A stretch of 63,890 nt of DNA, counting the filler, from an uncultured Methanosarcinales archaeon (GTDB taxonomy: Archaea > Nanobdellota > Nanobdellia > Woesearchaeales > CAYSVS01), in the NCBI GenBank assembly GCA_964434475.1. It is 7 parts of 7 records of this genome, joined end to end, with 100 filler letters (N's around TTAATTAATTAA, not from the genome) between each part and the next. Parts side by side here need not be neighbours in the genome. Positions count along the whole stretch, not along the records: positions 40,373 to 49,607 come from CAYSVS010000051.1; 6 more parts are not named here. One strand, written 5' to 3'. Below are positions 3,855-58,714 of this stretch, piece by piece. Every line of letters begins with the position of its first letter. Position 1 is the first letter of the stretch. The notes under the pieces were generated by a model. That model saw only the letters and a program-made list of their open reading frames with translations, searched no databases and was not told the origin of the DNA. Position numbers and translations under genes: made by a program.

Positions 3855-4915
3855 TTATTTTCAACCTCTGCATGAATCTCTTTTTCGTATATCTTAATGA
3901 ACGTCGATATAAACGCTAAGACTAATGGTCCAAAAATAACTCCTATAAAACCGAATAGTTTTAGACCTCCCATAACTCCTAATAATACCAGTACGGGATG
4001 TATGTTTGCTTTATTACCTACTATCTTTGGTCTCAATATTGTGTCTATTCCTGAAGCTGTTAAACCTGTTATCAGTACACCAATTGCTGAAACATAGTTT
4101 CCCATTACTAATTGTATTATTGTAGCAGGAACCCATACTAAAGTAGGTCCTATCAATGGAATTAGTGCAAGGAAAGCTACAATTATTCCCCATAATATAG
4201 GAGATGCTATTCCTGAAAACCAGAATCCTATGGTTGTAACAGCGCCTTCAAGTAATCCTACTAGTATGGTTCCGTATATCAATGCGTATGTTACGTCGCC
4301 GAATTGCTTTACAAGATGCTCTCTGTGCCGAAGTTTTATAGGCAAAAGCCTTTCGAATTTTTTAACAAGCCTGTCTCCATCAATGAAAATATAAAAAGTC
4401 ACAAAAATAGTTATAAATATATCTAGCATTCTTTTAGGGATGCTGAAAATGAAATTAGTAGCATTCTCTGCGAGATTGTTTGTGATTGTCTTGATGTTCT
4501 GTTCAAGGTAATATGTGAACTTTATCTTTGTTGCTGGATCTTTGAATATAATATCCAATGTCTCACAGAAAAATTTGTTATCTTCTTTACAGGAAAGTAA
4601 AGTTGTAGTAGTTAGTTTTTGTGATGCGATGATAGAGACTACATTAGCTTCATTAATCAAAGCATTTAATGTGAAAATTATGGGTATTATTATCAGCAAT
4701 ATTATCACAACAGATATAAATAAAGCGCTTAAGTTTCTGTTCTTTATCTTATTTTTTAGTTTCTTGTATACTGGATAGAATACATATCCTGCAATCAATC
4801 CTGTCAATGTAGGTACAAGAAAATCTTTTATTATGTAGATAGACATAAGTATTGTGCCTATGAATAATAGTAGCATAAAATATTTTGAATAATCTTTAAG
4901 TTCCATATTGTTCAC
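3851..4915 (-). CDS. AI-2E (PerM/UPF0118) family transporter
   Basis: Multi-TM protein; LIPLIGP, LRPKIVG..IHP.LVLLGVMGG..FGFIGVIFGP. Confidence 0.9.
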   Translation of the reverse strand: MNNMELKDYSKYFMLLLFIGTILMSIYIIKDFLVPTLTGLIAGYVFYPVYKKLKNKIKNRNLSALFISVVIILLIIIPIIFTLNALINEANVVSIIASQKLTTTTLLSCKEDNKFFCETLDIIFKDPATKIKFTYYLEQNIKTITNNLAENATNFIFSIPKRMLDIFITIFVTFYIFIDGDRLVKKFERLLPIKLRHREHLVKQFGDVTYALIYGTILVGLLEGAVTTIGFWFSGIASPILWGIIVAFLALIPLIGPTLVWVPATIIQLVMGNYVSAIGVLITGLTASGIDTILRPKIVGNKANIHPVLVLLGVMGGLKLFGFIGVIFGPLVLAFISTFIKIYEKEIHAEVENK

Positions 4916-7680: not shown

Positions 7681-7727
7681 GTGTGTCCTCCATTCTAATA
7701 GTTAGTCCCTGAAAAAATTGAACTTAA
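7681..7727 (-). repeat. cassette left arm of the decayed array
   Basis: Reverse complement of 7708-7727 is TTAAGTTCAATTTTTTCAGG, identical to 49020-49039; similarity continues to ..TTAGAAT..GG.CACAC. Confidence 0.75.
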
Positions 7728-7869
7728 GAACGTTAATATTTTCTGTTGATAATTGGATTTTTTTCATGATAAACATATTATAATATGATTTTAAAAATCT
7801 ATTGGTCGTTTTACTAATATATTTTCAAAAGTATTAAATATTTATTTTGTTAATCTGCTTAAATAAGAC

Positions 7870-8289
7870 ATGAATAAAATGGCAAAATTTTGTAATAATT
7901 GTAAAAAAAAGATTACTGAAAAACAGTGGAAAGAACTTGAACCTATTTTTGGAAGAGGTTTATGTAATGTTTGTAGAGATGAAGCTGCAAAGAAGGTTAC
8001 AAATCCTGCAAGGAATTTATTTGAAGCTTTTAAAAAAGAAGGTTTTAAAGTTTATTTGGAGAAATTTGATAAACATAAACATATTGATATTGTATTAATT
8101 GAACATAAAATAAATATTGAAGTTGATGGCAAGTTACATATTAATGATAGCGTATCTGCATTAAAAGATTTGGAGAGGTCTTTATATTCTATTAAAGCAG
8201 GATGGTTTACAATTCACATTCCAAATAAGATAGCAACTTACCATGCAGAAAAAGCAGTTGCATTAATAAAAAACATATTATTAAAGTAG
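7870..8289 (+). CDS. DUF559/Vsr-like PD-(D/E)xK endonuclease with an N-terminal Zn ribbon
   Basis: CNNC..CNVC; HIDIV..INIEVDGKLH..D.ER...GW..IHI. Confidence 0.8.
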   Translation: MNKMAKFCNNCKKKITEKQWKELEPIFGRGLCNVCRDEAAKKVTNPARNLFEAFKKEGFKVYLEKFDKHKHIDIVLIEHKINIEVDGKLHINDSVSALKDLERSLYSIKAGWFTIHIPNKIATYHAEKAVALIKNILLK

Positions 8290-8408
8290 TTAATTTATTA
8301 GCAAAAATTTTGTTTAGTATTTCTTATGAAAAACGTAGTTTCTATTTTATTTATTCTTAGTTAAACGAAGGCCCAGTGGTTAGAGATTTTTTTGTTTAGG
8401 CAGTAAGA

Positions 8409-8434
8409 AATTTCGTTTAACATCGGGATCCTTG
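8409..8434 (-). repeat. attC-like junction motif CAAGGATCCCGATG|TTAAACGAAATT
   Basis: 8418-8434 is the reverse complement of 17 bp identical to 41507-41523. Confidence 0.75.
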
Positions 8435-10391: not shown

Positions 10392-10491
10392 NNNNNNNNN
10401 NNNNNNNNNNNNNNNNNNNNNNNNNNNNNNNNNNNTTAATTAATTAANNNNNNNNNNNNNNNNNNNNNNNNNNNNNNNNNNNNNNNNNNNN
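10392..10491. other. artificial contig linker N44-TTAATTAATTAA-N44
   Basis: Identical 100-nt linker also at 20597, 30786, 40273, 49608 and 58615. Confidence 0.97.
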
Positions 10492-20596: not shown

Positions 20597-20696
20597 NNNN
20601 NNNNNNNNNNNNNNNNNNNNNNNNNNNNNNNNNNNNNNNNTTAATTAATTAANNNNNNNNNNNNNNNNNNNNNNNNNNNNNNNNNNNNNNNNNNNN

Positions 20697-22995: not shown

Positions 22996-23226
22996 ATGGA
23001 TTAGTGCGGTCGGCTTCGGAACTATTGCTTTTCTGTATGGGAAAGCATAAGTGTACATTGATTACATAGCCTTTATGTGATTTGTGGAGATACCGATTGA
23101 TCGGGGTTCGAATCCTNNNNNNNNNNNNNNNNNNNNNNNNNNNNNNNNNNNNNNNNNNNNNNNNNNNNNNNNNNNNNNNNNNNNNNNNNNNNNNNNNNNN
23201 NNNNNNNNNNNNNNNNCGTAGGCTCA
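22982..23226 (+). tRNA. tRNA-Arg(TCG) with a 72-nt intron at 37/38 (23020-23091); 3' end split by the N gap
   Basis: GGGCCTA..TAGGCTC-A acceptor, GTCGG-CT-TCG-G[intron]A-CCGAT, BHB central helix CTTC/GGAG with 3-nt bulges, GTTCGAATC. Confidence 0.88.
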
Positions 23227-30785: not shown

Positions 30786-30885
30786 NNNNNNNNNNNNNNN
30801 NNNNNNNNNNNNNNNNNNNNNNNNNNNNNTTAATTAATTAANNNNNNNNNNNNNNNNNNNNNNNNNNNNNNNNNNNNNNNNNNNN

Positions 30886-40104: not shown

Positions 40105-40372
40105 TACTATGATTTTTAAGTGTACCTTGCTCTTTTGTGATTATTTATTTATTTATTTATTTATTTAATTTTTAATATCCTTATTAATCTTTAATTATTG
40201 AATTATTCGAGTTTCTTTTCTATTCTATTTCTATATAGAAAACAACTTCATCTGTGCCTGCTTTATAAGAATNNNNNNNNNNNNNNNNNNNNNNNNNNNN
40301 NNNNNNNNNNNNNNNNTTAATTAATTAANNNNNNNNNNNNNNNNNNNNNNNNNNNNNNNNNNNNNNNNNNNN

Positions 40373-40423
40373 CAATATTTAGAGGTTTAGCCAAGGCTAG
40401 AGTTTAAATCTGCACAACTCCAG
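40373..40423. mobile_element. IS-like element end, type A
   Basis: 51 bp reverse complement of 63839-63889. Confidence 0.8.
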
Positions 40424-40450
40424 TATAGTTACTACTCATAAGTTAATATC

Positions 40451-40578
40451 TATAACGACGCCCTCCCTTAAAAAAAGCTCGCCAACAAAAACTCCTTCGC
40501 CACTTCGTTGCTCGGGCACGTTGCACTCTCGGGCTACGCCCTCGGCGGATTTAACAGGGCCCGATGTTATATTCAATT
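40451..40578 (+). repeat. attC-like junction J1
   Basis: TATAAC-GAC-GCCCT-CCC-TTAAA ... TTTAA-C-AGGGC-CCGAT-GTTATA hairpin. Confidence 0.7.
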
Positions 40579-40664
40579 TTTTGGGCAAAATAGTGGATTG
40601 GGCAAGAAGTCATACTTCCTCTATAGTAGAAACATATTTAAAACAATCAGCTTTCTTCTTAATT

Positions 40665-41393
40665 ATGCAACATTATGAAAGAATGGATCCGCAAGATAAA
40701 GATATACTTTCAATTACTAGACTAGGACATTTTGAAAGATATAAGCTTGCAACCAAATTGATTACACCCAATGCAGTTGTGCTCGATACAGCATGTGGTT
40801 GTGGATATGGAACAGAAATGCTTAGTAGAAAAGTTGCCCATGCAATCGGAATTGATAGGGATACTGATACTATATCATTATGCAAAGAAAGGTACAAAAA
40901 TAATGGAACCATTGATTTTCTTGTCGCTAATGTTGGAGAAATTCCGTTTGATGATTCTTACTTTGATTCTGTTGTAGGTATGGAAATGATTGAGCATATT
41001 GAACATCCAGAAAGGTTTGTTTCTGAAGCCTATCGTGTTTTGAATCAAAATGGTTCCCTTTTAATTTCAACACCCTATGGAGATAATACTCTTCTTTCAA
41101 ATGGAAAACCCTTTAGTCAATATCATATAAAAGAATATACTCAAAAAGAAATGGAAGAGATGTTACAAGATTTTGGATTTGATGTCATTCAGACTTACTG
41201 CCAGTATATCCTTCTTGGAGTACTTATGAAGCTAACAAATAATAGGGTTGAACCTATTAGCAATGTAAAAGCCGGAGGAACTCAATCACTAATGGAGAGA
41301 TTACCTTTCTTTGCTGAAATTTTTTCAAGACACTATCCGTTCTTGAAATCCACATCTAAAAACATGTTTTATCATGTTGTAAAGAGAACTTGA
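40665..41393 (+). CDS. class I SAM-dependent methyltransferase (cassette 1)
   Basis: H.ERY, VLDTACGCGYG, FD.VV..E.IEH, G.L.ISTP, YHIKEY. Confidence 0.92.
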   Translation: MQHYERMDPQDKDILSITRLGHFERYKLATKLITPNAVVLDTACGCGYGTEMLSRKVAHAIGIDRDTDTISLCKERYKNNGTIDFLVANVGEIPFDDSYFDSVVGMEMIEHIEHPERFVSEAYRVLNQNGSLLISTPYGDNTLLSNGKPFSQYHIKEYTQKEMEEMLQDFGFDVIQTYCQYILLGVLMKLTNNRVEPISNVKAGGTQSLMERLPFFAEIFSRHYPFLKSTSKNMFYHVVKRT

Positions 41394-41466
41394 CTTCTTG
41401 CCCCTAATTATTTTTACTTTATGGAACTCCGTTCTCAATATAATTTTGCCCAAAAAAACTTTTCGG

Positions 41467-41532
41467 TCGAAATCCATCGGAACTTCGTAACAGACGGAGA
41501 GCATAACAAGGATCCCGATGTTAGTTTCAATT
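41467..41532 (+). repeat. attC-like junction J2
   Basis: TCGAAATCC..AACTTCGTAAC..TAACAAGGATCCCGATGTTAGTTTCAATT. Confidence 0.7.
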
Positions 41533-41631
41533 TGGATTTTGGCTAATAGTCTAATAGGGCGGGAAGAAAACCGAAAGGTTTATATAGATATTCTTACTTT
41601 TCTTACTTATAAGAATATAAAGGTGAACAAT

Positions 41632-41880
41632 ATGCCATTAGTTGAAATTAAAAGTGCAACAATAACTGAAAAAGGACAGATTGCTATTCCAAAAGATATT
41701 AGAGAAGCAGAAGGATTTAAAAAAGGAACTAAAATTGCTATTTTAGCTTTTGAAGATCATGTTGAATTAAGATCTATGAAACAAATAAATGAAAAAATGG
41801 CTACTGCAGTAGCAAGCGAAAAAGTTTTAGCTAAAGATTGGAATAGCAAAGAGGATGATGAAGCATGGAAGAATTTGTAA
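41632..41880 (+). CDS. AbrB/MazE-family antitoxin (cassette 2)
   Basis: TITEKGQIAIPKDIRE..G...G; C-terminal LAKDWNSKEDDEAWKNL. Confidence 0.9.
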   Translation: MPLVEIKSATITEKGQIAIPKDIREAEGFKKGTKIAILAFEDHVELRSMKQINEKMATAVASEKVLAKDWNSKEDDEAWKNL

Positions 41881-42197
41881 AAGGAGATATAGTTGTTTTA
41901 CCTTTTCCATTTTCAGATTTAAGTAAATCAAAAAAGAGACCTGCTTTAATTGTCTCAAATTTACAAGGAGATGATGTAATACTTTCTCAAATTACAAGTG
42001 AAGCAAGAATAGATGATTATTCTATTACTCTTATTAGTGATGATTTTAAACAAGGAAATTTAAATCTAACTAGTATAATCAGACCAAATCGTTTATTTAC
42101 AGCTGAAAAATCTATAATTTTATATAAAGCAGGGTCTCTTAAAGAATCTAAAATTAAAGAAGTTGAAAAAGAATTAATTAAGATATTTACAAAATAG
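41865..42197 (+). CDS. MazF/PemK-family toxin (cassette 2)
   Basis: KGDIVVLPFPFSDL..SKKRPALIVS...ITS. Confidence 0.93.
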   Translation: MEEFVKGDIVVLPFPFSDLSKSKKRPALIVSNLQGDDVILSQITSEARIDDYSITLISDDFKQGNLNLTSIIRPNRLFTAEKSIILYKAGSLKESKIKEVEKELIKIFTK

Positions 42198-42240
42198 TTT
42201 TCTTCCCGCCCTTAATTCTTTTACTTAATGTACCGCTGAC

Positions 42241-42342
42241 GCTCTTTTAATAAAACGCCCTCTTTCTCGACTCTGCGGACTCAGGTTTCCAGAACTTCGT
42301 AACTGGGAACGAAACTAACAGGGCCCGATGTTATCTGTAATT
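42241..42342 (+). repeat. attC-like junction J3
   Basis: GCCCT/AGGGC pairing; AACTTCGTAAC 42293; TAACAGGGCCCGATGTTAT 42316-42334 identical to 40552-40570. Confidence 0.7.
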
Positions 42343-42389
42343 ACTTAATAAAGAAAACAAATATAAATCAAATAAAACCCCTAACTAAT

Positions 42390-43025
42390 ATGACTGAATG
42401 GAATGAAATTTATTCAAACGGAGCAATCCATAATACTCCTTCAAAAGAATTAACTTCAATAATTGAAATTTTAAGAGAAAACAATTTAGTTCATACCTTA
42501 GATGCAGGTTGTGGAACAGGAAGACATTCTCAATATCTAGCAGAACAAGGTTTTGTCTCTCATGGAATTGACATATCTCCAAAGGCCATTGAAGAAGCAA
42601 AAAATAATTCTCAAGGTTTAGATATTGATTATAAAATTGGCAAATTAATTAATTTACCATACCAAAATAATTCAATGGATTTCATTATTGCAAATCAATC
42701 ATTACAATATGCTTCTAATGAAGATGTGAAAAAATCAGTATCTGAATTAGATAGAGTTTTAAAACCTAAGAAACCAATTTTAATAAGAGTTTCTTCAGAT
42801 AAACATATTTTTAATGGAGCTAAATCCGAAGAAATATATGGATTTTCACACATCGGCTTTTCTATTAAAAAAGGTCTTCCAGTACATTTTTTTTCAGAAA
42901 GCGAATTAAGAAAATATTTTGAAGGATATAGAATAAAAAGATTAGAACACATTTCTCATAAAGTAGATCATGATAAAATTTCAGTTCCATTATCTGAATG
43001 GGTTTTGTTTGCATATAAAAAATGA
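42390..43025 (+). CDS. class I SAM-dependent methyltransferase (cassette 3)
   Basis: LDAGCGTGRH, GIDIS, LPY....D, RVLKP, HFFS..EL. Confidence 0.92.
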   Translation: MTEWNEIYSNGAIHNTPSKELTSIIEILRENNLVHTLDAGCGTGRHSQYLAEQGFVSHGIDISPKAIEEAKNNSQGLDIDYKIGKLINLPYQNNSMDFIIANQSLQYASNEDVKKSVSELDRVLKPKKPILIRVSSDKHIFNGAKSEEIYGFSHIGFSIKKGLPVHFFSESELRKYFEGYRIKRLEHISHKVDHDKISVPLSEWVLFAYKK

Positions 43026-43043
43026 GTTTTCTTTTTTAAGTAA

Positions 43044-43175
43044 CTTCTCCGTTCCTCACTTCGTTGCGGTACTCGACCACGCTGCGCTCTCGCTTCGTTC
43101 GGGACGTTTAACATTGTCTATGCGGTTTATTTCATTACACCCAAATTTCTGAAAACTTTAACTGATGTTGAGGGG
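43044..43175 (+). repeat. degenerate attC-like junction J4
   Basis: CACTTCGTTGC shared with J1; TTTAACAT...TAACTGATGTTGA. Confidence 0.5.
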
Positions 43176-43225
43176 ATTTTTCTTATATCTAAAATCAATA
43201 AAACATAGAAATAAAGAAAAAAAAT

Positions 43226-44251
43226 TTATGGTCTTCCTTCAGGTGTCCCTGATGATGCGCCAGTTATATTTGCTCTTGCTTCGCCTGCTTCTTCTCTGAC
43301 TTCTGCCTCGCTTTCTTCAGCTTCTGGTTCAAGTTCTTCAGCATCCGCTTCTTCTCTACCAGGAACATCAGCAGGTCTCCCTCTAGCTTCATCGGGAATG
43401 GGCAATCCTCTCTCTTCCAAAGCATTAACAGCAGAGTCTCTTCCCATCTGGGATTGTTCTATTGCTCTTTGAATACTGGATTTCGCTTGCTCAGGAACTT
43501 TTTCCAGAACATCTTCCAGAACAGTTATGTGCAATGATGTTGCTTTAGCAACTAATTCATTTACCTTTGAAGGGTCTTTGCCAACCTGTTGCGCAATAGC
43601 AGAAATTTCCTCACCAAATCTTGCATATTTCTCATATTCTTCTGCTGCTTCAGTAGCTTCTTCTTCATCTCCTGCATCCGATGCTTGCTTTGCTTTGTTT
43701 GCTCTGCTTTCTGCAACTCCCATCGCGACCTCAGCAGCTTTTTCAGGATTTTCTCTTGCTAATGCCTTCAAAGCTTCTTGGTTGCCTCGTATTGACCTTT
43801 CCCTTGCAGCAGCAATTTTTTCCCTTGCCTGCTCAGGCACTCTTTCCTGCACTTCATCAAGAACGCTTATATGCTGAGAAGTGGCTGTTGAAACAAGCTC
43901 TGCTAATTTTTCTTTATCTTGCGCTTCTTTTGCTAAAGTTGCAATTTCATTCGCTTCATTTACTTTATTTTCATATTCTTGTGATATATCATCTACAAAT
44001 TCAGGCTTTCCTTTAGCAGCCATTGCCTCTGCTTCAGCTAATCTTTTTTCAGTAAGCCCCAATGCACGCTCTGCTTTTGCTGTTTCTCCGAAAGTAAAAG
44101 CATTCCCAACAGATTCAAATGCTTTTTTTATTCCATAAAATGCGCTGTCTGGCAGAGTTCCAGGATCTGGTAATTCAGCTTGCGCATAAACTAGATTAGA
44201 CAATAAGAAAATCATCAAAAATGACAGGATTATTTTTTTCATTCTTTTCAC
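43226..44251 (-). CDS. secreted helical DUF5667-like protein (cassette 4, reverse orientation)
   Basis: PGTLPDS.FY..K...E; KRL.EA; repeated H..VL..V.E.VPEQA. Confidence 0.8.
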   Translation of the reverse strand: MKRMKKIILSFLMIFLLSNLVYAQAELPDPGTLPDSAFYGIKKAFESVGNAFTFGETAKAERALGLTEKRLAEAEAMAAKGKPEFVDDISQEYENKVNEANEIATLAKEAQDKEKLAELVSTATSQHISVLDEVQERVPEQAREKIAAARERSIRGNQEALKALARENPEKAAEVAMGVAESRANKAKQASDAGDEEEATEAAEEYEKYARFGEEISAIAQQVGKDPSKVNELVAKATSLHITVLEDVLEKVPEQAKSSIQRAIEQSQMGRDSAVNALEERGLPIPDEARGRPADVPGREEADAEELEPEAEESEAEVREEAGEARANITGASSGTPEGRP

Positions 44252-44338
44252 CTCTTTATACTATATATAATAATATTGATAAAGTTCTTTATAAAAATTT
44301 CTGTTTTGAAAATAAGCCCACCACTAACTTTACTCTGC

Positions 44339-44938
44339 TTACGCAGAATTTATCGTTTCAAAAATTTTACAAGCTTCCTCAATATTTTTGTCTTCTATGC
44401 TTATAACTGGGAATGGATAGTTTTTTAGTCTATCTTTAACCCTCATGATGCTTTTCTTTCTCGCATCAGTTAGTTTATTATAGACCTCAAGAAATTTGTC
44501 TTCATTAAGAACGGTATGAATAGATATATTTCTTTCATTGTTCTCGGAATCTACATTAAACTTATGAGTATCAAGATCAAAACAAATTTTTGAGTAATCA
44601 AACCCTCTTATTTCAAGACCCCTATAAACTGCATATAATGATGTTAATCTTTGTTGTCCATCAAGAATAAAATGAGTATAATATCTCATATTTCCTTTTT
44701 CAATCTTTAACTCTGGAATGTCTTTGTAATAATGAGCATAATCTTCTGGGGGTAGCCAAAGAAAAAAACTTCCTATTGGAAATTCTTTATACATACTGTC
44801 CAAAAGTTCAATAACTTTACTTTTTTCCCAAACAAATTCTCTTTGAAATCTTGGAATTTTCCATTCTCCCTTTTTTATTGAAGAGACTACTTCGGGTAAT
44901 GTTACTCCGGGATTAATTTTGATTGTTTTTTCTGCCAT
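44339..44938 (-). pseudogene. DUF262 (GmrSD N-terminal) protein, apparently C-terminally truncated
   Basis: IPRFQREFVW, PIGSFFLW, LDGQQRLT, IFETINS followed by an immediate stop inside the junction hairpin. Confidence 0.75.
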
Positions 44939-44958
44939 GATTATTTTATAACCTCATA

Positions 44959-45204
44959 TCAAGCAATAATCGGTTTATAATGTTTCCCTACCTTAAACTT
45001 AATTTTTGAAACATTCTCTTTTGATAAACTTCCTCCAACATTTACAATTTTTATTTTGAGACCACCTTCTCCTTCTTTAGTATTAATTATTGCTAATTCA
45101 AACTCAATCTCGCCTTTTAGTTTATATCCCTCTTTCAGACCTTTCTCAATTCCTTCAATTGTAGATTTTACATAATCTCCTAATTCTGCACTGTCAATTT
45201 CCAT
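44959..45204 (-). CDS. Trypco2-like small protein
   Basis: EL.DYV..T...I..G......IEFELA.......GGLKI..V..G.......SKIKF.V. Confidence 0.65.
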   Translation of the reverse strand: MEIDSAELGDYVKSTIEGIEKGLKEGYKLKGEIEFELAIINTKEGEGGLKIKIVNVGGSLSKENVSKIKFKVGKHYKPIIA

Positions 45205-45205
45205 T

Positions 45206-46582
45206 TTATTTCCTATCCTCATTAAGCACGTAATACGCTCCTCTATACGAGCCTACTTTTTTGATGTATTTAAATTTTAATAATTCATTTATGTCAGCAA
45301 TCGCTGTTCCAAAAGAGGTATTATTTAGTTCTTCATACTTTTTTGTCTTTATTGACTTGTGTTTTTTCAAAAATTCAATACATTTCTTTTGTCGTTCGTT
45401 TAAATCTGAATATTCTTCAATTGGCTTCTGTTTTCCTTTTTCATTGAATAAAACTATCCTGAAAAATCTCTCATAAATACTAAATTCCGGATCTTTTAAT
45501 CCATGGTCACGCATGGCGTTAATCATACGTGGCACGCCCGAACCTAATCCTTCCACATAACCATAATCTCGTAACAAGCGGTAAATTATTGGATTTCTTC
45601 TAACTGACAATGTTCCAAATAATTCCTTTGGCAGACCAGATGGCAGAGACCCTGGGCTTGTTACTTCAATTCTATTACTAAAAAGATAAATTTGGATGGA
45701 ATCTTTGCTAAAATAATCTCTGTGAGCAACCGCATTAACAATCGCTTCTCTAATAACCTCAAGAGGATATTCAAATTTTTCTTGCCTTTTTGGTTTGTCT
45801 GTTATTTGTATACTTTTGGAGAGATTCTTTTTGACAAATGAGAGAGATTTTTCAATTGAACTTACAGGATCAGATTGAATTAATTGATGAGAAATAATCT
45901 TTACTGGCTCTGTTCCATCAAACTGAGCAAGTTTAATCTCAATTTGTGGAGAAAAATCTTCTGGTTCTTTAGCAAAAAATAATGCAGTAGCATTTTTGAT
46001 TTTCAAACTGCCATTTTTCATAGCTAATTTTGAACTCAAAAGAAAATTTTCTACTGAATTTTGTTTTAGGAAATTTTCTTGATTACGAATTTTCAGATAC
46101 TCATTGATCTTCTCAACATCTAAATCATCAAGTGTGGCATCGCTGGAAATCTCATCAAAACAGAGAATTTGTTTGCTTCTTAGAAAATCTACTAATTGGT
46201 TGCCTTCAAATTTTTTGAGAGTGCTCCCGACCTTAACATAAATAGCCCCTTGGAATGTGTGAAAAGTGCTGTCAATTGCTTTTTGAATAACAACAGCAAT
46301 CACTTTCTTCCCCTCAATAGTATGAAATTGGATGTCTGGAACGAGGGGAGGAGAAACAGCTTGTGCGGATGCTGAGATTTTTTGCTGTAATCTATCAACA
46401 TCTTCTCTCACGCCGATTATAGTCTTCTTTGCATTTACTCCTACAAGAATCATACCGCCTTGAGTATTAGCAAAGCCACTCATCAGCTTTGAGAAATCTT
46501 GCGAACTATGGAAAGATTGCTTTAACTCTACTTCCTGTGTTTCTCCGCTTTCAATTACCTCTAAAAGTTGGTCTGTTTCCAT
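45206..46582 (-). CDS. AlbA_2/Schlafen domain + HATPase_c_4 + wHTH protein
   Basis: GE.Q.VE.K, FANT.GG.I.VGV, YP..V.REAIVNAVAHRDY, SPG.LP, RN..I, E..GSG. Confidence 0.92.
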   Translation of the reverse strand: METDQLLEVIESGETQEVELKQSFHSSQDFSKLMSGFANTQGGMILVGVNAKKTIIGVREDVDRLQQKISASAQAVSPPLVPDIQFHTIEGKKVIAVVIQKAIDSTFHTFQGAIYVKVGSTLKKFEGNQLVDFLRSKQILCFDEISSDATLDDLDVEKINEYLKIRNQENFLKQNSVENFLLSSKLAMKNGSLKIKNATALFFAKEPEDFSPQIEIKLAQFDGTEPVKIISHQLIQSDPVSSIEKSLSFVKKNLSKSIQITDKPKRQEKFEYPLEVIREAIVNAVAHRDYFSKDSIQIYLFSNRIEVTSPGSLPSGLPKELFGTLSVRRNPIIYRLLRDYGYVEGLGSGVPRMINAMRDHGLKDPEFSIYERFFRIVLFNEKGKQKPIEEYSDLNERQKKCIEFLKKHKSIKTKKYEELNNTSFGTAIADINELLKFKYIKKVGSYRGAYYVLNEDRK

Positions 46583-46584
46583 TT

Positions 46585-46702
46585 CTATCAGATACTATTA
46601 ATAATATTTGATAGTAAGTTGATAGTTATTTATAAAGCTTTCTCTTCTGTAAACACAAAAACTATCAAAAAAGATTGATACTAATCGATAATAAACTGAT
46701 AA
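46585..46702. promoter_or_regulatory. candidate operator array of TGATA/TATCA units around the AlbA-gene promoter
   Basis: CTATCA, TTGATAGT x2, ACTATCAA, TTGATACT, TCGATAAT, CTGATAAT, several about 10-11 bp apart. Confidence 0.45.
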
Positions 46703-46882
46703 TAAAAAATAGTGTTTTCTCGCCCCTCTCTTCTTGTTCTTTATGGCTCACTTTGTTCGTTTTTATCGGAACTCCCATTTGACGAAAAGAACTTCCCTCA
46801 GTACTTGTTCTATATTTGTCTCATCTGCTTATTTGAAGGAACTTTGTAAGCAAAAATATTCACGTTAATTTTATATTCTAAG

Positions 46883-47383
46883 CTATTTCTTGCCATTATC
46901 TAATAAACCTCTAAATTTTTCCCTCATATTTTCAGCATATTCGCCAGCAATATTACTAATAATAACCTTGATTTTTAGTACAAAATCTTCTGCATCAGCA
47001 AGCAATTCTTGTGTTGGTTCTTTCGTCAAGTCATCTTTTTCAGTAGTCACGTAATACTGCTTGTCAATTCTTTCTTCTTTTGCATTAGAAATTATCTTGA
47101 ATAATTCTGCTTCATCAAATAATAGTTTTAATAATAGGATTGAACCTGAATGATTCTCTGATTTTATTCCCACTCTAAACAGGAATGCGATCAATGAATT
47201 ATACATTGCATAATAGGACATACCGACAGAATTTTCGTAAAGATCATTCTTAAACAACAATCCTGCTGAAGTCAAGCAATTCTTGGACTTTTCAAGATAG
47301 GAATCGCATATCTCACTAGATGGCTCAACTAATTCTATTTTTTCTTCTTTTCTTAGCTTACTCAAAAACTTGTTTTTTTTCAT
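46883..47383 (-). CDS. HEPN domain protein
   Basis: YL.KS...L.SA, SYYAMY, GIKSENH, R...QYY. Confidence 0.9.
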   Translation of the reverse strand: MKKNKFLSKLRKEEKIELVEPSSEICDSYLEKSKNCLTSAGLLFKNDLYENSVGMSYYAMYNSLIAFLFRVGIKSENHSGSILLLKLLFDEAELFKIISNAKEERIDKQYYVTTEKDDLTKEPTQELLADAEDFVLKIKVIISNIAGEYAENMREKFRGLLDNGKK

Positions 47384-47912
47384 AGAATTTCTCCGCCCCC
47401 CTTATTATTATGTGATTTTTCACGATTTCCTTGATTAAATTTGATTTGGTATCAAAAGAACCAATCTTGACTTTTATCCTTGAATTAACAGCTTCAACTT
47501 CTTTCTTGACATTCCTATTTTTAGTTTCAATATAAATATCAATATCACTACTTTTTTTTGCTATGCCTTTGGCGTAACTGCCAAAAAGAATTATGAGGTC
47601 TTCATCTGTTTTTTTTAATATCTCTTCAAATATGATACTTAATTCTGGGTATTTCCTTAACAACTTTGTCAGCTTGTGAGACTCAGCTTTTAGCACATAA
47701 TTTTTAGCAACGAAACTTTTCTTCAAAAAAAATATCTTGTTCTTTCCTTCCTTTCTAAAATCAATAACATTTTCCTTGACCAAGTTGTTTAGTTTTCTAG
47801 ATATCGTTGTGTGGGACTCATCCAAGCTTTTAGCGATCCCTCGTACATGAGCTTCTTTATGGAGTAACAATTCTATGATATCTAATTCCAAGTTGCCCCT
47901 CTTTTGAACCAT
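47358..47912 (-). CDS. HTH-fused minimal nucleotidyltransferase (MNT)
   Basis: HVRGIAK.L...H.TI; ILFGSYAKG....SDIDIYI. Confidence 0.9.
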   Translation of the reverse strand: MVQKRGNLELDIIELLLHKEAHVRGIAKSLDESHTTISRKLNNLVKENVIDFRKEGKNKIFFLKKSFVAKNYVLKAESHKLTKLLRKYPELSIIFEEILKKTDEDLIILFGSYAKGIAKKSSDIDIYIETKNRNVKKEVEAVNSRIKVKIGSFDTKSNLIKEIVKNHIIIRGAEKFYEKKQVFE

Positions 47913-48020
47913 ATGTACCAAAAATGCACCATAATTATATAAATGTTGTGTTTCCCTACAGAGTAACAAGTATGAAAAACTCCCCTTTGCTACTTGTTCT
48001 TGATGTGTCGCTTTGCTCTT

Positions 48021-48167
48021 TTGAATTAACGAAATCCCCCATTCTACGCACATATACACTCGCTACGCTCGAAATTTATCTGAAGTTAAATACAACTCTG
48101 CGGACGCAGTTTGACCCCACGTTGTAGGGTCAAAGAGTTTAATAGGACCCCGATGTTAAGTTCAATT
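48021..48167 (+). repeat. attC-like junction J5
   Basis: TTGAATTAAC (48021) pairs with GTTAAGTTCAA (48155); CGAAATCC/GGACCCCG; internal hairpins CTGCGGACGCAG and TTTGACCC..GGGTCAAA. Confidence 0.72.
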
Positions 48168-48280
48168 AAATTTAAGTTTATAGATAATAAAAAAGGGAAT
48201 TCTCTCTAAAATGAATAGGCAAGAATTTAATCGAAAGGTTTATATATAAGTAATTATATATTGACTATAGGTGATATATA

Positions 48281-48505
48281 ATGACTGCAACCACAATACA
48301 ATTAGATAAAGAATTAGTAAATTCTCTTAAAGATGTAAGAGAATATCCTAGACAAACCTATAATGAATTAATCAGCAGAATGGTCGAAGTTTTTAAGAAT
48401 ATTAAAAAAAAGAATCAATACGATGAATTTCTTCATAAGATCCAGCAAGTTAAAATGAAAGAATTATGGGACAATGAAGAAGATGAGGCTTGGAAAAATG
48501 CTTAA
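48281..48505 (+). CDS. RHH-type antitoxin
   Basis: TTIQL...L...LK....YPRQTYNELI; C-terminal MKELWDNEEDEAWKNA. Confidence 0.8.
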   Translation: MTATTIQLDKELVNSLKDVREYPRQTYNELISRMVEVFKNIKKKNQYDEFLHKIQQVKMKELWDNEEDEAWKNA

Positions 48506-48812
48506 ACCCGGAGATGTTGTTTTAACAAGAATCCAATTTGCTGATACTTTTGAAATAAAAACAAGGCCTGCTGTAATCTTATTTGAAGAATTTGATAACT
48601 TTATTGTTGCAGGTGTAACAAGCAACAAGTCTATGAAAGGTATTTCTTTAACTAAAAAAGAAGGCGCGATTAAAGATAGTGTTATCAAATTAAATTATAT
48701 TTTTACAATATCTAAGATTATGATCGATAAGGCGTTATTCTCTTTGACAAAAGAAAAGAAAAAGATTGTTTTCGATACACTTGTTGAGAAATTAGAAGTA
48801 TTAAAAGATTAA
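48498..48812 (+). CDS. MazF/PemK-family toxin
   Basis: KPGDVVL..IQF.DT.E.KTRPAVIL....AGVTSN. Confidence 0.88.
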   Translation: MLKPGDVVLTRIQFADTFEIKTRPAVILFEEFDNFIVAGVTSNKSMKGISLTKKEGAIKDSVIKLNYIFTISKIMIDKALFSLTKEKKKIVFDTLVEKLEVLKD

Positions 48813-48979
48813 ATTCTTGCCCTTTCTTCTTTTATTTTTCTTACTTAATTTATCTAATTTTTTCAATAATTATTCATCAATTTCTAAAAAATACATTTTA
48901 GAGATTCAATCTTTTTCTAAGATTTTTAGTAGTTCCTACATGAATTTTTCTCTGCTTCATAATATGTTTAGCTTTTTTG

Positions 48980-49064
48980 ATATATTCGGGTCTCAATTCA
49001 GGCTCTAAAAGACCCTATGTTAAGTTCAATTTTTTCAGGAGCTATTAGTTAGAATAGGGCACAC
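48980..49064 (+). repeat. attC-like junction J6 plus cassette left arm
   Basis: GGGTCT/AGACCC hairpin; GACCCTATG|TTAAGTTCAATTTTTTCAGG..AATAGGGC. Confidence 0.65.
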
Positions 49065-49607
49065 TCAACTTAGATATGATAATCCCGCATAAATACACAG
49101 CAGAAATAATCAGCACAATTATAGGACCTGTTGCAAAATTCAAATAATACGAAATAAACAATCCTGAAATGCTTGCAAACAAAGTGATTAAAGAAGAAGT
49201 TAGCATTATTTTCTTGACTGTCTTATGAAATAGTTGAGCAGTAGCAGCTGGAATTGATAATATAGCAATCATAAGAACAATTCCAACAACCCTTATGGTA
49301 GCCACTATTGTCAATGCTACCAATACAAAAAGTATCATATTAACTAAAGTGACAGGCATATTTCTTGTTTCGGCATATTCTTCATCAAATGTAACCGCCA
49401 AAAATGAATTATACATCAAATAAACTATTGCTAGTATAATTATATCTAAGAAAAGAATTATATAAAGATCAAATTTTGATACCAGTAAAATATTCCCGAA
49501 TAGGTAAGTAAACAAATCTGTTGCATAGCCAGGAGTTAAAAAAATAAAGACCAAACCAATAGCCATTCCTGTTGCCCATAAAAAACTAAGCAGAGTATCG
49601 ATTCTAT
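49045..49607 (-). CDS. Zn/Mn ABC transporter permease (ZnuB-like), 5' part missing at the contig end
   Basis: YLFGNIL, TFDEEYA, IRVVGIVL..A.L.IPAATA, G.IIVL. Confidence 0.9.
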
Positions 49608-49852
49608 NNNNNNNNNNNNNNNNNNNNNNNNNNNNNNNNNNNNNNNNNNNNTTAATTAATTAANNNNNNNNNNNNNNNNNNNNNNNNNNNNNNNNNNNNN
49701 NNNNNNNATGGACAAAACCCATTTTATTCTTTAAAAGCTCTAATCTAAGCTATGCACATACGGATGAATTGTCCTTTCTTTTAACTGAATTTAGGCAATT
49801 AAAGTTATATTAACAGAAAACTATTTATAAAGGAATATATGGCATATATAAT

Positions 49853-58528: not shown

Positions 58529-58714
58529 GGTTTTTCTTATCTTTTATTTTTTTTTATTTTTTAATTGGTTCTGAAATAAAAATATCATGAATAATATTAT
58601 TGAGTATAATCTATNNNNNNNNNNNNNNNNNNNNNNNNNNNNNNNNNNNNNNNNNNNNTTAATTAATTAANNNNNNNNNNNNNNNNNNNNNNNNNNNNNN
58701 NNNNNNNNNNNNNN

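Follow-up and report, generated by a model that had tools for sequence, protein, structure and literature searches.

A contig of 9,235 bp (positions 40373-49607) within the 63,890-nt stretch of DNA analysed here (the window), from an uncultured archaeon placed by GTDB in the Woesearchaeales (GenBank assembly GCA_964434475.1), contains a tandem series of gene cassettes in which cargo genes are bracketed by long inverted repeats specific to each unit. We consider it probable, at roughly 75%, that this contig is an integron-like cassette array, in which the two arms of each repeat are the basal stem of an attC-like folded site, split between the cassette ends, and that the system is served in relatives by a Xer-type recombinase. 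The layout is a variant of the integron principle and is new as far as the literature searched shows. The window is made of seven contigs (5-10 kb each) linked by N44-TTAATTAATTAA-N44, and genes across these joins are not physically linked. All five strong repeat pairs lie inside the array contig; the finding is wholly within it, and therefore no claimed pair spans a join.

The five pairs had been listed in a preliminary description of this DNA, and their coordinates and sequences all proved exact (Table 1). In the cassette designated C1 the arms are complementary at 13/13 (arm A) and 15/15 positions (arm B), in C2 at 16/16, in C3 at 17/18 and in C8 at 15/15. Perfect inverted repeats of at least 15 nt with loops of 200-3000 nt occur three times in the array contig and once in the other 54 kb, where the repeat is poly-A/T. 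To score bracketing, the stop region of each gene or operon was compared with the 130 nt that precede it. Scores are 13, 16, 15 and 15 for the four forward-oriented units, while 58 other genes of the window have a median of 7 and reach 11 at most, so that the contrast with ordinary genes, on which the earlier claim depended, holds. Specificity is equally clear. When the 5' regions of the cassettes are compared with their 3' regions in a matrix, the long runs fall on the diagonal (15, 16, 9 [score 15] and 15), and all non-own pairs score at most 10, array neighbours included; each left arm indeed matches only its own right arm.

Perfect inverted repeats of 12-13 nt with kilobase-sized loops are common in this AT-rich DNA (3-13 per contig), and the weaker pairs proposed earlier are at that level. 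The arms of the pair 43200-43212/44297-44307 around the DUF5667 gene are unequal (13 and 11 nt) and match at chance level, and the nested 8-mers 46802/47965 and 46841/47957 around the HEPN and nucleotidyltransferase genes score 8-9, which is background; these proposals were not retained. As an account of the five strong pairs, chance matching in AT-rich DNA has a negligible probability and is excluded by four observations: three perfect repeats of at least 15 nt plus the 17/18 pair all occupy homologous positions, the matches are confined to the matrix diagonal, the 58 control genes score lower, and the arrangement is replicated in other genomes.

Units are separated by a 27-nt box found in five direct copies (consensus TAACAGGGCCCGATGTTAnnTTCAATT; core CCCGATG|TTAnnTTCAAT, the bar marking the predicted crossover), and the arms are placed regularly with respect to both boxes and cargo. 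Left arms start 11-63 nt past the GTTA of a box, and in two units, both toxin-antitoxin, the left arm immediately adjoins the promoter-like CGAAAGGTTTATATA (repeat family D11). Right arms are at the stop codon, which they contain or touch (TGA 41391-41393, TAG 42195-42197, TGA 43023-43025 and TAA 48810-48812), 63-198 nt ahead of the next box, and a T-rich run lies 3' of every one of them. This bears out the description of one arm on or touching the stop codon and the other before the promoter. Both arms of a unit thus flank its cargo, yet lie between two boxes.

The bracketing of a gene-sized unit, together with a loose motif common to the arms (GGGC..AAGAA), could also be read as the mark of non-autonomous transposons derived from miniature inverted-repeat transposable elements (MITEs) or insertion sequences, with the arms as terminal inverted repeats. 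We regard this as very unlikely. Unlike such elements, the units have no conserved terminal repeats: the arms vary from unit to unit instead of being conserved for one transposase, and they are inside the box-defined units, not at the unit ends. The flanks show no consistent target-site duplication, and Pfam finds no transposase in the window. The enzyme found in relatives is a tyrosine recombinase at a fixed attI-like site, and transposition leaves unexplained both the pairing across the crossover and the homology breaks at the box described below.

The box itself points to the place of recombination. Joining the two ends of C2, 3' to 5', turns the box into a perfect 10-bp hairpin (GAAACTAACA / TGTTAGTTTC); its two strands, R'' and R', pair over 10 bp with the cassette's own 5' end and over 5 bp with the actual array neighbour. 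Because the hairpin of the C2 box forms fully only with the cassette's own ends, the crossover is placed inside the invariant TGTTA. The same logic historically placed the integron crossover in G|TTRRRY. Folded as plain single hairpins, the array junctions are not attC-like, and the structure becomes clear after joining a cassette's own ends. A duplex dif-like TAACA-N8-TGTTA was considered as the general form of the site and rejected, as the spacing varies from 7 to 10 nt.

The folded site is more complete in relatives. These were reached by scanning the pattern CCCGATGTTANNTTCAA over one genome per species, which gave mostly chance matches, in bacteria. Among the 80 listed of 118 stretches, five metagenome-assembled genomes (MAGs) of Woese- and Pacearchaeota have the same GC-rich context, and the analysis used these five loci only; they carry more copies of the pattern, often at contig ends, and each has at least two strong tyrosine recombinase genes. 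In two of them (contigs G003:C67 and G002:C4) the order is recombinase (minus strand), box-like attI-like site, left arm, small membrane open reading frame (ORF), right arm, and a structured element of ~150 nt that ends in a box, and the arms are 15/15 and ~15/16 complementary, respectively.

The array-linked recombinase (class A) is a protein of 267 amino acids and is frameshifted in G002. Three array-linked proteins match the NCBIfam family XerA_Arch (NF040815) at 234-238 bits, above the cut-off of 220. The integron-integrase family TIGR02249 is matched in two pieces (profile positions 1-181 and 237-314) at 212 bits, the cut-off being 265; the alignment skips positions 182-236, and class A therefore lacks the IntI insert. 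A second Xer paralogue in the same genomes (class B) is 43% identical to class A and may be the likelier housekeeping Xer of these archaea. Class-B loci (L150, L151, L155 and L156, in G001-G003 and G005) have conserved synteny: small zinc-ribbon (CxxC) protein genes flank them on one side or both.

A search with an alignment of the three class-A proteins returned 80 loci, 45 of which have at least 59% identity and come from MAGs of Woese-, Pace-, Nano-, Aenigm- and Parvarchaeota. The nhmmer profile of the box gave 35 matches in 23 recombinase loci, all 35 upstream of the recombinase and divergent from it and none downstream. Of the 22 loci examined, 21 have the attI-like motif TGTT[AC]N5AAT at a distance of 83-173 nt from the start codon of the recombinase gene, where it is preceded directly by a perfect hairpin with 10-14-bp arms, followed by ATG|TTAnnnnnAAT. 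A co-occurring tyrosine recombinase, which the preliminary description had suggested looking for, is thus present at the arrays of relatives. Hairpins of this kind stand 60-150 nt upstream of the recombinase start in L163, L168, L171, L184, L185, L188, L194, L196, L197, L201, L206 and others, with arms such as TATCATAA/TTATGATA or GGATATG/CATATCC and a spacer of 6-18 nt, directly before ATG|TTA. This shared hairpin on the attI side could be a recombinase-binding or folded element. Recombinase relatives of 36-42% identity are also found on contigs labelled Parcubacteria, Flavobacterium, Mangrovibacterium and Cyclobacteriaceae (L233, L237, L239 and L240), with a weak box match upstream of the one in L233; they may have spread into bacteria or been mis-binned.

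In relatives, cassettes whose own ends are joined are predicted to take a recurrent fold, which runs from an outer arm through optional hairpins, R'' (nnnnnTAACA), L'' (8-13 nt), a multi-hairpin variable region that contains CCCAAAT, L', a constant unpaired GA and R' (TG|TTAnnnnn) to AA(T) and the other outer arm. R'' and R' are 64-163 nt apart in relatives, with extra hairpins and outer arms, and small hairpins with TTC/TTCG loops are present in the sites. R, L and arm stems all covary. Ten cassettes, C2 of the window included, have perfect 10-bp R''/R' stems with covarying variable 5 nt, and R''/R' pairing is longer with the own 5' end than with the array neighbour in 19 of 30 cassettes (equal in 9, shorter in 2). 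Stems of 8-13 bp between L'' and L' are found in 15/15 sites, hand-picked as those with R'' located by at least 6 bp; these sites have 11 distinct L'' 10-mers, and the median L''/L' pairing is 12 bp for own against 3 bp for cross-site combinations. L' belongs with the L'' of the same junction and the pentamer after TGTTA with the R'' of its own cassette; therefore the crossover is confined to GATGTTA.

The arms stack directly on the covarying R''/R' stem, often beginning right past the AAT of the box. Own arms score at least 12 in 17 of 33 cassettes, a level that 20 of 1056 non-own pairings reach. Finally, the joined own ends fold better than the actual array junction in 24 of 26 cassettes, with mean folding energies of -50.7 and -39.4 kcal/mol, respectively (Wilcoxon p = 2.6e-5; 22 cassettes from 13 recombinase loci and 4 cassettes of the window, L201 and two units <350 nt being excluded).

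Similarity between junctions breaks at the box. Among the 1711 pairs formed by 59 junctions, 8 are alike downstream only, 14 upstream only and none on both sides, so that the break is at the box in 22/22 similar pairs. One 126-nt segment (86% identity) is next to attI in L187 and behind three cassettes in L185, and its homology starts no more than 3 nt from the predicted crossover. At the cargo end, homologues of the AbrB-MazF pair of C2 were matched at E <=0.001 in 201 of 401 genomes of one order (20 loci taken, 7 inspected). They are ~66-74% identical, too diverged to compare arm covariation between orthologous cassettes, and alignable only over query positions 44-684, in different contexts. 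Homology of this cargo thus ends inside the arms. One related cassette of the same system (L256) has no clear arm (score 8). Two backward joints in the Logan contigs of one public run, which may be the source sample, were considered as cassette circles and set aside, since they come from another 4.8-kb contig with shared short site repeats; such joints are uninformative for or against excision.

Some cassettes carry no gene. L201 has two identical gene-less cassettes of 213 nt, which fold completely, with R'/R'' and L''/L', and whose arms (TTTTGCTCCT/AGGAGCAAAA) close a 40-nt loop; in L172, a unit of 373 nt has a 56-amino-acid ORF in the arm-closed loop. Read on the reverse complement, the gene-less cassettes of L201 are in tandem beside the attI-like site, 100-526 nt from the recombinase start, and their 5' module reappears after the last box at 3936.

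The empty and nearly empty units lend themselves to an account in which the arms are the ancestral stem of a small hairpin, into whose loop promoter and gene were inserted, with no later role in recombination. It agrees with the ending of AbrB-MazF homology inside the arms, with arms that abut the cargo exactly at stop codon and promoter-like motif, and with the T-rich run after each right arm. We nevertheless think it unlikely that the arms are a capture footprint only. They have remained perfect (13/13 to 16/16) although they differ from unit to unit, suggesting continued constraint or correction, and they are stacked on the covarying R''/R' stem. No loop-capture insertion mechanism or enzyme was seen in the material analysed, and empty cassettes could equally come from loss of cargo. 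The capture or cassette-building footprint put forward in the preliminary description is therefore kept as a rival, nothing here requiring such capture. Its structural picture fares better: the arms pair and covary, and promoter and gene lie between them in an arm-closed loop, an arrangement that the gene-less cassettes repeat with the same arms around 40 nt. The stem, however, most likely belongs to the recombination site and not to the integrated unit per se.

Promoter-like CGAAAGGTTTATATA beside the left arm of two toxin-antitoxin units, T-runs after the right arms and TTC/TTCG hairpins in the sites would also suit arms that act as regulators in the integrated state, on RNA or DNA, be it as a terminator/insulator pair, antitoxin operators or a read-through RNA stem. 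This is improbable, as methyltransferase cassettes, small membrane ORFs and gene-less units are bracketed in the same way, the partner of R'' lies across the recombination crossover, and the homology break at the box is left unexplained. In addition, Rfam, searched on the array contig at E-values up to 10, gave only chance matches below threshold (best 0.14, below the gathering score).

Under the integron-like reading that we favour, every cassette would have, or once have had, a long folded recombination site. The full site would comprise, in order, an outer arm, small hairpins, R'', L'', a variable multi-hairpin loop, L', GA, R', AAT and the second outer arm, and strand exchange would take place inside R', within the invariant GATGTTA and, by analogy, at G|TT. 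The enzyme would be the 267-amino-acid XerA-like tyrosine recombinase that, in relatives, is divergent from the attI-like site. Its substrate is probably folded single-stranded DNA: loops of variable length and covarying stems fit this better than a rigid duplex core. Once a cassette is excised as a single-stranded circle, its site would fold as one long stem (L stem, R stem and arm stem), giving a dumbbell with the variable loop at one end and promoter and gene in the opposite loop. On integration, all that is 3' of the crossover (TTAnnnnn, AAT and one arm) would become the 5' end of the cassette, and the remainder of the site would stay at its 3' end behind the stop codon. The cargo would thus be bracketed by its own repeat because strand exchange splits the stem to opposite cassette ends, and arms would differ between units yet match their own partner because they are halves of one folded site. 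Cassette circles presumably exist; their better fold (~11 kcal/mol) may favour capture, or pairing of own ends may align the crossover points for precise excision.

Several observations weigh against this reading. In the sites of the window, R'' and R' are only 7-10 nt apart (GGGCCCGA and variants) and there is no L stem; a good R''/R' stem is found only in C2, with 6 bp in C1 and 3 bp in C8. The three reverse-oriented units of the array contig have no own inverted repeat above background (scores 8, 9 and 8), nor has a cassette on contig 1 with a reverse-oriented ORF of 139 amino acids (score 9). Pfam detected no tyrosine recombinase among the 74 ORFs of the window, so that it is the relatives that connect the array with the enzyme. 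There, no ungapped arm with a score of at least 12 is present in 16 of 33 cassettes, and some of the cassette borders, which were set by regular expression and nhmmer profile, may be wrong. Moreover, own-end pairing alone cannot tell a circular form from long-range pairing in an integrated single strand. The array of the window may be old, partly decayed and to some extent no longer mobile. That C1, C2 and C8 have perfect arms argues for either a recent arrival or a constraint that persists.

A bolder version can be offered only tentatively, and we think it doubtful as a whole: a plain Xer-type recombinase without the IntI domain might run an independent, second type of integron in DPANN archaea, in which every cassette is self-addressed. 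The 5' end of a cassette (R' remainder plus arm, 25-75 nt) would act as a guide that pairs with the 3' end, draws the two flanking crossover points together and templates precise excision and circularisation, and the arm hairpin would also dock new genes into an empty, site-only minicircle.

Table 1. Features of the array contig and joins of the window (window coordinates)
Feature	Position	Strand	Remarks
Contig linkers	10392-10491, 20597-20696, 30786-30885, 40273-40372, 49608-49707, 58615-58714		
C0, 3' recombination-site core of truncated upstream cassette	40440..40566	+	GC-rich, small hairpins, motif GTTGCACT
Junction box TAACAGGGCCCGATG|TTATATTCAATT	40552..40578	+	repeat family D2, nhmmer
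Further box copies	41506-41532, 42316-42342, 48141-48167, 49005-49031	all direct orientation	family D2, 5 copies in total
C1 cassette, 954 bp	40567..41520	+	starts with R' remainder TTATATTCAA
C1 arms	B-left 40577-40591, A-left 40600-40612, A-right 41391-41403, B-right 41443-41457		
C1 class I S-adenosylmethionine (SAM) methyltransferase ORF	in-frame ATG 40665 to stop 41393	+	PF08241, 2.6e-21
C1 site end	R'' ATAACA 41503-41508, loop, TG 41519-41520		
C2 cassette, 810 bp	41521..42330	+	R' remainder TTAGTTTC 41521-41528
C2 arms	left 41556-41571, right 42197-42212		promoter-like CGAAAGGTTTATATA 41572-41586 after left arm
C2 AbrB/MazE-type antitoxin	41632-41880	+	Pfam
C2 MazF/PemK toxin	41865-42197	+	Pfam
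C2 site end	R'' GAAACTAACA 42311-42320, loop GGGCCCGA 42321-42328, TG 42329-42330		
C3 cassette	42331..43167	+	left arm 42341-42358 immediately after TGTTATCTGTAAT; right arm 43026-43043
C3 methyltransferase	42390-43025	+	Pfam
Reverse-oriented cargo stretch	43168..48155	-	Pfam
DUF5667	43226-44251	-	Pfam
GmrSD_N (DUF262-type)	44339-44938	-	Pfam
Trypco2-like small protein	44959-45222	-	Pfam, weak match
Schlafen/AlbA_2 ATPase (plus HATPase_c_4)	45206-46582	-	Pfam
HEPN	46883-47383	-	Pfam
Nucleotidyltransferase	47358-48059	-	Pfam
C8 cassette	48156..49019	+	left arm 48218-48232, CGAAAGGTTTATATA 48232-48246, right arm 48807-48821
C8 DUF7557 (ribbon-helix-helix-like)	48281-48505	+	Pfam
C8 MazF/PemK	48474-48812	+	Pfam
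Array-end flank TTAAGTTCAATTTTTTCAGGAGCTATTAGTTAGAATAGGGCACAC	49020..49070	+	meets stop of convergent ABC-3 permease gene
ABC-3 permease gene, convergent	49045-49566	-	Pfam

The units of the array differ in preservation (Table 1). The C0 core, whose box belongs to family D2, ends at the crossover G 40566 (nhmmer box match at 40545, 25 bits), and CCCGATGTTA has four exact plus-strand copies in the array contig. The site of C3 is of the long type, degenerate, with CCCAAAT, and ends CTGATG|TTGAGG at G 43167; in computations the end of C3 was set to 43166, one base from that G. The core of C8 is degenerate and ends CCCTATG at G 49019, its R'' being unrecognisable. Within the reverse-oriented stretch (repeat family D6) there is a decayed junction near G 46807, with right-arm-like motifs at 46713-46762 and 47975-48022. 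The GmrSD_N, Trypco2-like and Schlafen/AlbA_2 genes, in a row on the minus strand (44339-46582), are a possible defence cluster carried as cargo. ARAGORN found no tRNA in the array contig, and an origin of the GC-rich cores from tRNA fragments was dropped for that reason.

The first 51 nt of the array contig (40373-40423) match a separate Logan contig of 1,069 nt, with a depth of 186 against ~10 elsewhere, and are a high-copy repeat or the sequence of another organism at the contig edge. A second, decayed pair of cassette junctions is found on contig 1 (~7690-8430, minus strand). There, CCCGATGTTA is exact at 8418-8427, the box near 7732 is degenerate, and the flank at the array end (~7690-7735, minus strand) resembles 49020-49070. 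The rest of the window encodes ribosomal protein S17e, Alba, an archaeal CCA-adding enzyme and NurA (Pfam), which points to a DPANN-type archaeon. An additional gap of 100 N is present at 23117-23216.

Integrons are generally taken to need the IntI-specific domain for recombining folded single-stranded sites. In dozens of DPANN genomes, the recombinase linked to an attC-like, covarying folded site lacks that domain. The paired region crosses the crossover by tens of bases, which allows cassette borders and crossover points to be mapped from sequence only, and the folds predict that a cassette would be a much better substrate as a circle than within the array (~11 kcal/mol). Given that cassette genesis is an open question for integrons, the gene-less cassettes offer a handle on how cassettes are made; if the bolder version were true, genesis could be traced by comparing empty with filled units. 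The arrays are also a likely route for the exchange of defence, toxin-antitoxin and surface genes among small-genome symbiotic archaea. In the literature searched, which comprised main texts outside subscription journals, we found no description of Xer-type cassette arrays in DPANN, and the passages found in two papers on tyrosine recombinases (PMC8138268, PMC8371274) do not mention such a system.

Compared with known systems, the array is most like integrons and the clusters of attC sites without integrase (CALINs), with tandem cassettes, sites in one orientation, and cargo rich in toxin-antitoxin, methyltransferase and defence genes. As in CALINs, the contig of the window shows the array only, without a recombinase gene; as in integrons, relatives have a divergent tyrosine recombinase beside an attI-like insertion point, with the sites in one orientation. 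According to passages of PMC3053210, the canonical attC is a palindrome of 57-141 bp between RYYYAAC and GTTRRRY, organised as R''-L''/L'-R', with structure conserved over sequence, and is read by IntI via extrahelical bases. In relatives, the sites share the imperfect palindromes, the R''-L''...L'-R' boxes, the AAC/GTT triplets and the covarying stems, as well as a crossover in R', which leaves each cassette with opening bases that pair with its own R''. The sites described here differ in being longer and multi-branched in relatives and reduced to R''-loop-R' in the window. Whereas canonical cassettes pair over ~6-7 nt past the crossover, pairing here extends for 25-75 nt, and each cassette is therefore bracketed by a repeat of 13-18 bp; the layout does exceed the ~7 nt of own R'/R'' complementarity of canonical cassettes, as the preliminary description had maintained. 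The cassettes also seem to carry their own promoters, unlike those of integrons, and the recombinase of relatives is XerA-like, without the IntI insert. The archaeal integrons of Ghaly et al. 2022, as presented in PMC9668308, have an IntI with the extra domain and bacterial-like attCs.

Likeness to the Xer/dif systems of chromosome-dimer resolution is found in the recombinase of relatives, which scores above the XerA_Arch cut-off (238 against 220 bits), and in the circular junction of C2 in the window, the only one that fits an 11-6-11 near-palindrome. There is precedent for a Xer enzyme using a folded single strand in the hairpin attP of CTX phage, and integrative mobile elements (IMEX) likewise exploit Xer. 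According to PMC2958812, archaeal dif is an 11-6-11 (28-bp) duplex site at the replication terminus, which in Thermococcales is unique and not beside xerA; here, in contrast, there are many sites per genome, with arrays beside the recombinase gene. Other differences from Xer/dif are the spacing of the half-sites TAACA...TGTTA, which varies from 7 to 10 nt in the window, and the second Xer paralogue, with 43% identity and conserved synteny, in the genomes of relatives. IntI keeps an ancestral duplex activity, according to PMC4792948, and a Xer-type enzyme on folded sites is therefore plausible as an evolutionary relative. A further likeness is with the pdif modules of Acinetobacter plasmids in the use of small gene modules, toxin-antitoxin pairs among them, and of Xer-type sites. 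Those modules are bounded by inversely oriented 28-bp duplex Xer-type sites and are shuffled between replicons. The boxes of the present array, unlike pdif sites, are all direct, and its inverted repeat is a stem specific to each unit, not a recombinase site.

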